Translations under genes and position numbers: made by a program
Notes under the pieces: generated by a model
What the model saw: only the letters and a program-made list of their open reading frames with translations
The model's database searches: none
What the model was told of the DNA's origin: nothing
Shown: positions 22,423 to 27,749 of the stretch, one piece after another
How the letters are laid out: each line of letters opens with the position of its first letter
Position numbering within the stretch: position 1 is the stretch's first letter
Origin: a phage
Strand: one strand, 5' to 3'
Length of the DNA stretch: 64,000 bases
Sequence record: PZ496580.1

Positions 22423-23208
22423 TTACACGCGAGCACCGTAGATCGTGCCTACTTTATCCCAGCGAGGGGCATTGCCAGTAACAGCCTTACCAGCTGCGCC
22501 ACCCGAGTGAACAGTTCCTCCAGTACCACCTTGAATATATGAAGATTTGCCAGCAGACCCCAAATCTCCACCATTTCCTCCATAGTGAACCCCAGAAACA
22601 GTGCCTTTACCTGGGGCAGAAATTGTACCAGCAGATGCTGCCGCTGCGCCGCCTCCTGCCTTACCAGCAGCACCAAATGGACGGCCTCCGCCGCCTCCAA
22701 ATATCATATCCATTTGAGGGAAAGGATGGTATCTAGCACCAGCACCGCCACCACCGCCACCACCAATAATACCATTATTGTTTATTCTTAAACGAGTTCC
22801 AATTCCGTTATTTATTGCATTTCCTCCTGCTCCACCAGCAGAGTTACTTCCGCCATTTCCTCCCCGACCTAATACATGAACACCAGAGTTAATGATTAGT
22901 GTCACATATTCATTTGTTAGTGAGCTAGGGAAATCAAGACAAGGAACGCCAGTAGATTGGGAAACAATATTACCTGTGATAGTAATTACTACCGGAGTAG
23001 ATCCTTGTGCTTTCATCCAGTTAATAAGAGTGTCTTTATTGTAAGAGTTACTAGCGCCAATGCTATAATGAATCTCTTTAGAACGTCCGACCATCGCTGA
23101 CATATACGCCGGACGACCTAAGCGTACAGCTTGCATTGCGGCGCTCATCCACCGTTGACCAGTCTCAGACACAGCCGATGATCCGACCCAACCTGCTTTA
23201 ATTGCCAT
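22423..23208 (-). CDS. glycine-rich protein (261 aa), function unknown
   Basis: ATG at 23208; about 110-aa N-terminal domain then low-complexity Gly-rich C-terminus (GGGGGGGAGARYHPFP...GGGGGRPFGAAGKAGGG...); bracketed by terminator-like hairpins. Confidence 0.55.
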   Translation of the reverse strand: MAIKAGWVGSSAVSETGQRWMSAAMQAVRLGRPAYMSAMVGRSKEIHYSIGASNSYNKDTLINWMKAQGSTPVVITITGNIVSQSTGVPCLDFPSSLTNEYVTLIINSGVHVLGRGGNGGSNSAGGAGGNAINNGIGTRLRINNNGIIGGGGGGGAGARYHPFPQMDMIFGGGGGRPFGAAGKAGGGAAAASAGTISAPGKGTVSGVHYGGNGGDLGSAGKSSYIQGGTGGTVHSGGAAGKAVTGNAPRWDKVGTIYGARV

Positions 23209-23224: not shown

Positions 23225-23244
23225 AAAAGCCCCAATTAAGGGGC
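23225..23244 (-). terminator. weak terminator-like hairpin
   Basis: 5-bp GC stem gcccc/ggggc with 6-nt loop then short U-run; lies between family-B gene and glycine-rich gene. Confidence 0.35.
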
Positions 23245-24766: not shown

Positions 24767-24795
24767 ATTATGCTATACCCTATTCCGGTTGTCAA
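24767..24795 (-). promoter_or_regulatory. sigma70-type early promoter
   Basis: TTGACA(24790-24795)-17-CATAAT(24767-24772). Confidence 0.6.
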
Positions 24796-24800
24796 CACCT

Positions 24801-24832
24801 AAAAACGAAAAAGCCACCCTTTCGGATGGCTT
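24801..24832 (-). terminator. rho-independent terminator (GAAA tetraloop)
   Basis: 7-bp GC stem 24813-24819/24824-24830, loop gaaa on minus RNA, then U-run; after the stop of the 715-aa gene. Confidence 0.6.
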
Positions 24833-24843
24833 TTGATTATATT

Positions 24844-26991
24844 TTATTCACGTCCATTTGTATAGTAGTGTTTGAATCGACCATAGCCAGTTTCAATAGA
24901 CATATCCTTCTGGCGGACAATAGCCCAATAACCATTACACGAATCTTGAAGATACAAATCCTTACCTTTTAGGAACTCATTAAAGATAGTGATTTGCCAG
25001 TCATAGTAGACAGAATCTTCAAGTTTATCCATCCAACCATGCGGATCTTCCATCAATTCGACAAGCTCATCAATCACCCAATACGGACACGGACTAAATC
25101 GACCTTTGCTAAACTCGTTAAACATAGTAACAATTTTAACTTCCGGTCTAGGTTCATCCGGTCGCACAGGACGTTTATTAACTACAACCTGAACATATTT
25201 TGTATACCCGACAATCTCGCCAGGATCTAGTTCATCGTTGCTGTTTTTATCAGCAAATGCAACAAATCGATAAACACCAGCATCCTCTAGCGTAACGTTT
25301 GCTTTACGGTAAATCGGACTTCTTGAGTCTTCCATTTCCATTTTAACACCGTTTTTACTAAACTCATAAGTCGGAACATATGAGGCTGGCGGTTTTAGCA
25401 TGGTTGCTTCTAGCGTCAGAGTATCACCTTCCGTAACCTGTACCGGATGAGGACCGTCAAACTCCATATTCGGCACTACTTCAACATGATAGGTCGAACG
25501 ACCAGCAATATCAAAATCAGTATGCGCACTAAATGGATCTTTACTCGGACTATCACGATATTCATGCGCCCAGATGCCGTTATGGTCTCGGTCCGCAGAG
25601 TCGGTGATCTTATATTCCTTAGTACCTAGCGGAAGTTCCGTTACTTTAACGTCGTTTTTGGTGATAACCAAAGTTCGCGTTTGTTCGGGATCATCACTAG
25701 CTGGCGGTTCAGGATCTACGATCTTGAGAACAATAGGTTCACCCACTTCAATATTACGATAATCATACTCTTTATCATAAATCTCAAGCATACGACGATC
25801 ATAAAATAATGGGCGACCGTTAGGAATCACCTGTTCACCCGCTGGATTGGCAGGAGCAACCAACAATTGAAGCGCAACGCTGTTATCATATTGCAATCCA
25901 GATAGCGTTATCCGGTCATAACCCTCATCGCCATATTTTTTACTTTGTAGTTTCTTACCGCCAAGCATCCACGTAAAGTAAACGTTGTTAGTAAGCATAC
26001 CATAATGACGATTCCATGAGCTATCGGCTTGCATCACTGGCATATCAAGGTTTACAGTAGATCCAGAAGGATAACGAAAATCAATAGCACTAAAATCACG
26101 GCTAAAAAATTCGTTTTCTTTTACGTTAACTGTAAATTGGTGTCGCTGTCCATCAATATATTGTTCACCAGATCCGGGTCCATTAACAACCTTATACGCA
26201 CGAACAAAAGCAACATAAACCCCAGCATCTGACGGTTGAGCGTGTTTAGTCACGTATAGAGTCTTATCTTTAGACTCATAAACCAAGCTACCATCATTAC
26301 GCTCTAGTCGATATCGGACAATAGTATATTCCGCCTGATTAGGTGCATCATCCTCTACAGTAAAATAAGCAGGTGCATATTTTTGTACGTTGAATACTTC
26401 CTTATTTTCAGTGATGTTTGCATAGAAAGGATATACAAATTTAACCTCACCATGTTCATCACTCAATTCCATTTTATATGTACCGGAAAATTCAGGCCAC
26501 GCGAATTTTGCAATTTTAAATTCACGATGGTCCAACCCCAGATCACCATCAACGGAATCAACCAAACCATCATTATAATAGAGGTCAACCGAAATATTAG
26601 GCTGGATATGACTACGAAAAACAATCTTTGCCTTGATTTCATCACCAATATTAAAAGACGTCGGCGGGTATACATGTTCCACATATGGATTGTCAAAAAG
26701 TTCAAAGGTGAAGTTTTCCGTGCCGATATCTACGGATTCGCCAGAAAGATTTTCATCATCTTGAGCAAAACCACGAACATTAACAGACCAACCTGTTTTA
26801 TCTTCCTCTTTAACAGATTTTAGTGGAAAAGATGGACCATCTGTCATTGTGATCAACTTATCATTCTTTTTCCACAAATAACCTTTTCGTCTTTTCTCTG
26901 GGTCTTCCGACTCAGCAACAATAGAACATTCAAAAGTATGAGGAAGCCAAATTTGAGAGTTAATTGTAGTGTTTTTGATTTCTGCTGGCAT
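24844..26991 (-). CDS. large protein with repeated Ig-like domains (715 aa)
   Basis: ATG at 26991; recurring Ig-type signatures (SDAGVYVAFV, EDAGVYRFVAF); longest ORF in the early region. Confidence 0.6.
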   Translation of the reverse strand: MPAEIKNTTINSQIWLPHTFECSIVAESEDPEKRRKGYLWKKNDKLITMTDGPSFPLKSVKEEDKTGWSVNVRGFAQDDENLSGESVDIGTENFTFELFDNPYVEHVYPPTSFNIGDEIKAKIVFRSHIQPNISVDLYYNDGLVDSVDGDLGLDHREFKIAKFAWPEFSGTYKMELSDEHGEVKFVYPFYANITENKEVFNVQKYAPAYFTVEDDAPNQAEYTIVRYRLERNDGSLVYESKDKTLYVTKHAQPSDAGVYVAFVRAYKVVNGPGSGEQYIDGQRHQFTVNVKENEFFSRDFSAIDFRYPSGSTVNLDMPVMQADSSWNRHYGMLTNNVYFTWMLGGKKLQSKKYGDEGYDRITLSGLQYDNSVALQLLVAPANPAGEQVIPNGRPLFYDRRMLEIYDKEYDYRNIEVGEPIVLKIVDPEPPASDDPEQTRTLVITKNDVKVTELPLGTKEYKITDSADRDHNGIWAHEYRDSPSKDPFSAHTDFDIAGRSTYHVEVVPNMEFDGPHPVQVTEGDTLTLEATMLKPPASYVPTYEFSKNGVKMEMEDSRSPIYRKANVTLEDAGVYRFVAFADKNSNDELDPGEIVGYTKYVQVVVNKRPVRPDEPRPEVKIVTMFNEFSKGRFSPCPYWVIDELVELMEDPHGWMDKLEDSVYYDWQITIFNEFLKGKDLYLQDSCNGYWAIVRQKDMSIETGYGRFKHYYTNGRE

Positions 26992-27012
26992 GTATCCCCC
27001 TTGTGACTGACA

Positions 27013-27411
27013 TTAAGCCAGTCGAGTGAGTTTATAAATTGTTTTAAAGCATAGAACTTTGATATCGTCTAAAACGCTCTGTAACGAGCTATCAACATCA
27101 TTATAAATCTCACTAGCCATTTGCGTTAACTCTTGCAAATAGGCAATTTCGCTAATCTCCTTGCGGACGACCAACGTTGGCTGATAACGACCAGTGATCC
27201 CAATATTGGTTTCAGTGAAATTATCAACCAATTCTTGCATTTCAAGATAGAACTCTTCTAAAGCCTTATGTTTTGCATAAGATCCTGGACCAGTTACCCC
27301 AAAATGCGCAGAATGCATATAAGTAACACTCATCAGACATTCACCGATAAAGCGGTCAACTTTATTAGCTTTCCCCTCTTCGGACGTCTTTCGAAAATCA
27401 CTGAATTTCAT
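27013..27411 (-). CDS. Dps/ferritin-like four-helix-bundle protein (about 132 aa)
   Basis: YMHSAHFGVTGPGSYAKHKALEEFY resembles the Dps signature HYHWNVKGPNF..LHE.FEE.Y; ATG at 27411 with GGAGA; track start 27510 lies inside rI. Confidence 0.5.
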   Translation of the reverse strand: MKFSDFRKTSEEGKANKVDRFIGECLMSVTYMHSAHFGVTGPGSYAKHKALEEFYLEMQELVDNFTETNIGITGRYQPTLVVRKEISEIAYLQELTQMASEIYNDVDSSLQSVLDDIKVLCFKTIYKLTRLA

Positions 27412-27700
27412 GTTCTCGATTCTCCACATTATGCAACATAACAAATTGTTGTGCGGCATATTCCCCCATAATAAAACACTGCTTAGAATCCATACATTTA
27501 CTACGAGCATACATCTTCATAATATGGGCATGAAATTTCTGGCTGGTTTCAATGGAAGGAGATATTTTGTTTACATATACTATCATTGCACCGTCGAAAT
27601 AATCAGTAAAGTCACCAGTTGGATCATATTGATCAGCACTGACGCTTCCGACCGCAGTCAAGCATATTGCCGCTGTTAGAGTTTTACGAATAAATGACAT
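27398..27700 (-). CDS. rI: antiholin RI (lysis inhibition), signal-anchored periplasmic protein
   Basis: N-terminal signal-anchor LTAAICLTAVGSVSA then periplasmic domain; DP..DF and conserved Cys spacing resemble T4 RI; position next to tk as in T4. Confidence 0.7.
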   Translation of the reverse strand: MSFIRKTLTAAICLTAVGSVSADQYDPTGDFTDYFDGAMIVYVNKISPSIETSQKFHAHIMKMYARSKCMDSKQCFIMGEYAAQQFVMLHNVENREHEIQ

Positions 27701-27709
27701 AAGTCATTC

Positions 27710-27749
27710 CCCCAGATTGAAAATATTCAGTTATATTTATAATCTGGGG
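27710..27749 (-). promoter_or_regulatory. T4-type late promoter TATAAATA embedded in a 9-bp inverted repeat, upstream of rI
   Basis: Minus strand TATAAATA at 27734-27741; inverted-repeat arms 27710-27718 and 27741-27749. Confidence 0.5.

Follow-up and report, generated by a model that had tools for sequence, protein, structure and literature searches.

The rI locus and its transcription unit

The window, i.e., the whole 64-kb stretch of DNA that was analyzed, is a segment of the genome of a Krischvirus coliphage (RB49/Phi1-like, Straboviridae), its closest match being phage Brandy (97.8% over 4.4 kb). Downstream of rI, the minus strand encodes a 715-aa protein (ORF715) within the following arrangement of features:

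24767..24795, minus strand: strong sigma-70 early-type promoter, TTGACA-17-CATAAT, which starts the next unit and marks the downstream boundary
24809..24834, minus strand: intrinsic terminator (11-bp stem, GAAA loop, T-run), end of the rI/rI.-1/ORF715 unit
24844..26991, minus strand: coding sequence of the 715-aa Hoc-like protein, ATG start, 82 kDa, pI 4.9
24847..25092, minus strand: C-terminal alpha/beta domain (aa 634-715), homolog of the Hoc capsid-binding domain at profile level
25093..25173, minus strand: basic and proline-rich linker (aa 607-633), pLDDT below 50, predicted to be disordered
25174..26991, minus strand: six predicted Ig-like beta-sandwich domains (AlphaFold2 model, Foldseek, Pfam Ig_3 on aa 514-578)
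26995..27000, minus strand: Shine-Dalgarno sequence GGGGGA, 3 nt 5' of the ORF715 ATG
27013..27411, minus strand: rI.-1 (DUF5856, Dps-like), separated from ORF715 by 21 nt
27398..27700, minus strand: rI (antiholin, lysis inhibition), first gene of the putative late unit
27734..27741, minus strand: T4-type late promoter box TATAAATA, about 34 nt 5' of the rI start

The initial annotation, made from the DNA sequence alone, had placed the 715-aa ORF at exactly these coordinates and had described it as the largest of the early region. No ORF of the minus-strand block is longer, and within the window it is exceeded only by a baseplate gene of 1028 aa on the plus strand. It had also been placed between an nrdC/dam block and rI/tk, which is roughly right, since dam and nrdD/G lie downstream and rI.-1, rI and tk upstream. 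However, gene 38, which encodes a glycine-rich tail-fibre adhesin (22423..23208, minus strand), had been overlooked. This gene is separated from the other tail-fibre genes; a terminator (23244..23229) precedes it, and its upstream region lacks TATAAATA. It is co-oriented with ORF715 and lies 1.6 kb downstream of it. Because a virion adhesin is encoded in the same co-oriented block, this block is not purely early.

The linkage between rI.-1 and ORF715 is kept in all carriers of the gene and in a 60%-identity homolog, and the order tk, rI, rI.-1, ORF715 is retained even in this homolog, whose downstream genes differ. The TATAAATA box upstream of rI is perfect and found at the same position in the window, SSG23, JK32, Phi1, KFS-EC and a divergent metagenomic locus (L008), and no second copy lies within the 3.4 kb surrounding ORF715. 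Over both strands of the whole window, TATAAATA occurs four times, compared with 6.3 copies expected from shuffles (87 of 100 shuffles gave at least four), a frequency within chance. The terminator, which had been correctly noticed as belonging to this gene, lies directly 3' of the stop codon, its 11-bp stem and T-run extending from 24834 to 24809. In L008, a terminator of different sequence stands at the same place and the downstream early-type promoter has an equivalent, TTGACA-17-TATAAT. No promoter was found in the 21-nt gap between rI.-1 and ORF715, no strong terminator between the TATAAATA box and 24834, and no MotA-box middle promoter in the rI region upon a non-systematic look by eye. 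In the GenBank record of SSG23, rI is unannotated, a 156-nt ORF on the opposite strand having been called instead, and the rI.-1 start is over-long. The longest rI.-1 frame in the window (165 aa, from 27510) overlaps rI, the conserved start being the ATG at 27411.

The proposal that ORF715 is expressed early is thus unsupported, given the lack of a promoter of its own, the conserved TATAAATA 5' of rI and the lack of a strong terminator before 24834. Since transcripts of T4 rI are made early as well as late, late co-transcription of ORF715 is plausible. ORF715 would probably be transcribed late, as the last gene of a rI/rI.-1/ORF715 unit extending from TATAAATA to the terminator, and it may also be transcribed by read-through from early promoters. 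The canonical hoc locus of SSG23 (inh, the 846-aa gene described below and hoc) has no TATAAATA on the coding strand, and the motif is therefore a weak discriminator of late expression.

Domain architecture of the 715-aa protein

The AlphaFold2 model of the 715-aa protein, built on a 16-sequence alignment, has a mean pLDDT of 76. According to this model, the N-terminal part forms a linear string of six Ig-like domains (aa 1-100, 101-195, 196-292, 293-405, 406-506 and 507-606), as is typical of Hoc-like proteins. Foldseek searches against the PDB matched the model to the six-Ig ectodomains of contactin, neurofascin and DSCAM over about 680 columns (E about 1e-17; 2e-17 for the best match, to contactin/neurofascin ectodomains). 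These matches bear out the initial Ig inference. The two DAGVY strand motifs on which it was based are present (SDAGVYVAF, aa 254-262, and EDAGVYRFVAF, aa 569-579). The Ig assignment comes from the predicted fold, the sequence signal being weak. Indeed, the Pfam Ig_3 match on domain 6 (E 1.3e-4) scored 22.8 bits for a gathering cut-off of 30 and is sub-threshold, so that ORF715 does not reach Ig_3 or I-set membership by the Pfam gathering threshold. Besides, in the exhaustive profile search described below, the first Ig domain (aa 35-80, 26752..26889) matched many giant multi-repeat proteins of up to 6973 aa and 23 repeats, with E-values down to 2e-30, which suggests that domain 1 is a member of a widespread Ig-repeat subtype.

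Several comparisons relate the C-terminal domain of ORF715 to Hoc proteins. PHROG 1149 ("Hoc-like head decoration") matched aa 512-698 of ORF715 with an E-value of 9e-10, and the last 118 aa alone with 7.5e-7. With phmmer against PDB sequences, residues 272-361 of the 376 of T4 Hoc aligned with aa 597-689, and the C-terminal fragment of T4 Hoc used in tblastn on the window gave its sole significant match inside ORF715. Profile-profile comparison (hhalign) of the C-termini of the ORF715 family with those of Hoc gave a probability of 93-94% (E about 1e-7), compared with 0.6% for a reversed alignment and at most 10.7% for 20 column shuffles. When a Hoc-only HMM was run on the 617 reading-frame segments of the window, ORF715 was the sole match (E 6.7e-6; next best, 0.2). 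In the opposite direction, a full-length ORF715-family profile was searched exhaustively with HMMER against 1.84 billion representatives. Only two full-length clusters were retrieved, both of the ORF715 family. The profile also matched a Hoc-sized protein (P0100) over the last Ig and C-terminal domains with a library-wide E-value of 6.8e-4, and this protein is a T4-type Hoc (E 1.8e-35 to 5vf3_Z). The domain contains the motifs PYWVIDELVEL and QDSCNGYW, for which T4 Hoc has GWWVMDEIQKM and QESRNGYI.

The capsid-binding domain of T4 Hoc folds as a four-stranded beta-sheet carrying a three-helix bundle (PMC10385173). When the last 110 aa of ORF715 were modelled with an alignment rich in C-termini of Hoc, the core was confident (pLDDT 83-91) and comprised three helices lying on a beta-sheet, a predicted topology that may correspond to that of T4 Hoc. 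The relationship is remote: Foldseek gave no significant match of the C-terminal model in the PDB, pairwise BLASTP of ORF715 against the Phi1 Hoc was marginal (E 0.017), and a word-indexed profile search with the C-terminal alignment returned one fragment only. A tblastn search of 50,697 phage records with the C-terminal 152 aa found just the six carriers and a remnant in Phi1, with no BLAST-level link to Hoc. Taken together, profile comparisons identify the C-terminal domain (aa ~634-705) as a remote homolog of the Hoc capsid-binding domain (T4 Hoc ~281-376).

This domain is also the most conserved part of the protein, with a mean pairwise identity of 0.89 within the family, compared with 0.62-0.78 for the Ig domains. 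The family thus follows the Hoc pattern, with a constrained anchor and variable Ig domains. The computed pI of 4.87 for the whole protein (4.62 for its C-terminal domain) falls in the range of about 4-5 typical of Hoc-like proteins and is similar to those of the SSG23 and Phi1 Hoc (4.90 and 4.64, respectively).

The initial annotation had suggested either a surface or adhesion role or an early interaction scaffold. A surface or adhesion role remains plausible, but an early intracellular scaffold is disfavoured by the Hoc-type anchor. More generally, an early-expressed protein absent from the virion, acting as a scaffold or as a surface or adhesion factor in or on the infected cell, would fit the co-orientation of ORF715 with early genes and the possible read-through from upstream early promoters into a gene that has no promoter of its own. 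Against it stand the Hoc-type anchor being the most conserved part of the protein and the conserved late promoter box upstream in the same unit. Moreover, no signal peptide or transmembrane segment is predicted in the 715-aa protein, which therefore cannot reach the cell surface before lysis, and such an early role is improbable. Association with the tail or its fibres, as for the Ig domains decorating tail proteins in many phages, could be evoked from a weak match of PHROG 3995 ("tail protein") on one Ig domain (E 3.5e-4) and from the proximity of gene 38. However, this match covers a generic Ig domain only, no tail-protein domain is present and the sole non-Ig domain is of the Hoc type, making this location highly improbable.

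T4 Hoc contacts gp23 through Y293, H295, R300, Y304, W306, W309, W310, Q354, the loop E355-S-R-N-G359 and Y360, and contains an internal salt bridge, D313-R357; the positions conserved in Hoc-like proteins for gp23 contact or loop geometry are Y293, H295, R300, W309, W310, D313 and the loop E355-S-R357-N-G359 (PMC10385173). The 715-aa family retains these residues only in part. In the HMMER alignment, W310 (W638), D313 (D641), Q354, S356, N358, G359 and Y360 are kept, and W309, E355 and Y304 are conservatively changed to Y, D and F, respectively. Five positions are replaced, namely Y293 by I, H295 by T, R300 by F, W306 by P and R357 by C (C685), the last of which abolishes the D313-R357 salt bridge. 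The YVHPxPxR strand of Hoc aligns with a stretch of the linker whose residues are not conserved with it. The alignment with T4 Hoc is free of indels between the WVxDE helix and the SxNG loop.

All five replacements are invariant throughout the family. Together with the lost bridge, they could reflect a re-targeted anchor, the protein being associated with the virion but docked off the gp23 hexamer centre, on a subset of capsomers, the gp24 vertices, the neck or the tail. Such an anchor would let it coexist, and not compete, with the canonical Hoc and the 846-aa paralog, both of which keep the conserved contact residues including YVHPIPWR and ESRNG, since only one site per hexamer is available for three Hoc-like proteins. 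Nevertheless, Q, S, N, G and Y of the loop as well as W310 and D313 are kept, and no positive evidence points to another site. Besides, the gp23 segment aligning to the Hoc-docking region of T4 is identical in a carrier and a non-carrier of ORF715 (SSG23, L012:39-1637, and Phi1, L004:1-1222, respectively), and the hypervariable gp23 segment does not track carriage. A re-targeted anchor, although the foremost alternative, is therefore doubtful.

Distribution, remnants and companion genes

The ORF715 gene is present in six of 59 related phage records (Brandy, SSG23, SFHK24, UPWr_E1, vB_EcoM_G2248 and JK32), all of which annotate it as a "hypothetical protein". The non-carriers Phi1, KFS-EC and ECD7 harbor decayed remnants at the same place in the genome, in which the start codon is changed from ATG to ATA, an early in-frame TAG is present and the Shine-Dalgarno sequence is weakened to GTGGGA or TTGGGA. 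Internal deletions differ from phage to phage, one of them lying between two copies of GGTCGATTC. The small "hypothetical" ORF084.1 annotated in Phi1 (L002:2344-2472) is part of such a remnant. These remnants indicate that the gene is ancestral and was later lost, and a recent insertion or mobile element was rejected on account of such decayed copies with a mutated start codon. Most sequenced Krischviruses have lost ORF715, its decay being seen in the three non-carriers examined closely. The initial annotation had also raised the case of a known virion component at the same locus in characterised relatives; this is not what was found, RB49, Phi1 and JSE lacking the gene there.

In public data, ORF715 has 15 clusters of homologs, of 706-718 aa and 58-98% identity. 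The dN/dS ratio between ORF715 and the JK32 copy was 0.11, with a dS of about 1.45, and decreased to 0.05 for the C-terminal domain alone. Such intact homologs and low ratio indicate a functional gene and no chance frame, and ORF715 is under purifying selection. The decay of ORF715 in most sequenced Krischviruses could suggest a dispensable gene on its way to loss, devoid of current function in the carriers; this selection analysis largely refutes such a reading, which is barely tenable.

The six carriers all possess a canonical hoc gene (408-410 aa) between gene 24 and inh. Between inh and hoc, the same six phages, and none other among the related records, carry an 846-aa Hoc-like gene (L005:4411-6951, XHY52999.1 in SSG23), labelled "hypothetical protein" in most of the six records. 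This gene, and not ORF715, is the second Hoc location detected by tblastn in carrier genomes. Its product has strong Pfam Ig matches, a canonical anchor (YVHPIPWRR ... LESRNGY) and a PHROG 1149 match with an E-value of 9e-50. In Phi1, the small "hypothetical" ORF168.1 (L004:6647-6811) consists of the first 34 and last 36 codons of the 846-aa gene fused together; this gene is therefore ancestral too and was lost in most RB49-like phages. Its product is matched over the first 34 and last 37 residues by two PHROGs of "unknown function", 19377 and 32100, which are thus probably remnants of the 846-aa gene as well. Carriers of ORF715 therefore encode three Hoc-type proteins, i.e., the canonical Hoc, the 846-aa and the 715-aa proteins.

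Functional coupling as an explanation for the co-occurrence of the 715-aa and 846-aa genes was rejected: an unrelated 576-aa ORF shares the same six-phage distribution, and the pattern thus marks a lineage. In SSG23, this ORF lies with another extra one of 310 aa between g23 and g24 (L005:11871-14551), in the middle of the head gene cluster. The 310-aa ORF gave weak coiled-coil and tail-fibre matches, and no family match was found for the 576-aa ORF. A gp23 surface variant matching carriage was rejected as well. Within Krischviruses, gp23 is hypervariable at residues 133-217 (64-84% identity, a 4-aa indel) and about 99% identical elsewhere, and this variation is mosaic and does not track the Hoc-like genes.

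A predicted head-decoration fibre among known Hoc proteins

With its divergent version of the capsid-binding domain of Hoc, ORF715 is best explained as a further fibre decorating the capsid, and not as an early intracellular scaffold. We consider it probable, at about 0.65, that ORF715 encodes an additional, divergent Hoc-like head-decoration fibre, for which we infer capsid binding, its site, late timing and an adhesive role. The Hoc-type C-terminal domain would serve as its anchor on the gp23 lattice of the expanded capsid. From there, the six Ig-like domains, which are acidic, would extend outward and form a fibre of about twice the length of T4 Hoc (18 nm). As proposed for Hoc, such a fibre could adhere weakly to bacterial or mucosal glycans. 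Because carriers also encode the canonical Hoc and the 846-aa protein, their heads may display up to three kinds of Ig fibres. Literature searches on virion proteomics or structure of the carrier phages and on Krischvirus Hoc paralogs returned nothing relevant. A more elaborate scenario, which we hold to be rather unlikely, would combine three Ig fibres on one T4-type head with a re-tooled anchor (R357C, loss of the YVHP strand, invariant Cys635/Cys685) docked at a different site or capsomer subset, with synthesis coupled to the rI/rI.-1 lysis-inhibition operon, and with a loss that, together with that of the 846-aa gene in Phi1, marks adaptation to hosts or conditions where these fibres are useless.

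Hoc is the textbook case of a dispensable Ig fibre, presumed to modulate how phages adhere to mucus and cell surfaces, and a major scaffold for phage display and vaccines. Close relatives with one or three Hoc-type fibres, with intact copies or remnants, offer a ready comparison for addressing the purpose of these fibres. A diverged anchor in which half of the known gp23 contacts are replaced could reveal how tolerant the Hoc-capsid interface is, and a second, orthogonal docking site, if it exists, would be useful for dual display. Besides, six GenBank "hypothetical protein" records can be re-annotated, as can the two "unknown function" PHROGs that are probably remnants of the 846-aa gene. The finding would not surprise a T4 specialist. 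Multi-Ig Hoc fibres and two Hoc-type proteins per phage are already known. What is new is a third Hoc-type gene, ectopic, strongly diverged and without a connection to Hoc by BLAST, its altered contact residues, its position behind rI and rI.-1, and the fact that most sequenced Krischviruses have lost it, the three non-carriers examined still containing decayed remnants.

The initial comparison with Hoc was apt beyond the abundance of Ig domains, ORF715 also bearing the divergent C-terminal domain. Like ORF715, T4 Hoc (5vf3_Z, 8t1x) and RB49 Hoc (3shs) consist of a string of Ig domains followed by a small alpha/beta C-terminal domain; they share with it the WVxDE helix and the Q(E/D)SxNGY loop at identical spacing, acidity, and variable Ig domains next to a constrained anchor. 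However, they have three Ig domains and ORF715 six, and the anchors are about 23-30% identical, with Y293, H295, R300, W306 and R357 replaced. Furthermore, hoc lies between gene 24 and inh, whereas ORF715 lies at the rI locus and coexists with a canonical Hoc gene, and its capsid binding is a prediction. About 650 Hoc homologs have been described, with architectures of up to 10 Ig domains, including a 1174-aa Hoc with 10 Ig domains and a second, 314-aa Hoc in Serratia phage Muldoon, and two Hoc-like proteins in Enterobacter phage PG7 (PMC10385173). Elongated Hoc fibres, and phages with more than one Hoc-anchor protein, thus have precedents, but here there are three Hoc-like genes, one of them ectopic with a markedly diverged anchor not linked to Hoc by BLAST. 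A metagenomic protein of 245 aa (P0071) has the Hoc capsid-binding domain at its N-terminus (VHPIPWR ... WWIFD ... ESRNGY), followed by other beta-rich domains, an inverted architecture similar to that noted for PG7 (PMC10385173). The 846-aa protein resembles the 715-aa one in being a multi-Ig fibre with a Hoc-type C-terminus, found in the same six phage records and lost in RB49-like phages with a remnant; it differs by its canonical anchor and strong Pfam Ig matches, the anchor of the 715-aa protein being divergent and its Ig domains barely detected by Pfam. Finally, T5 pb10 and other Ig-bearing decoration proteins are monomeric, bind at the hexamer centre and display an Ig-like domain, but the pb10 anchor has no sequence relationship with that of ORF715, the weak match between them (5lxk_A, E 0.73) being just a generic Ig one.
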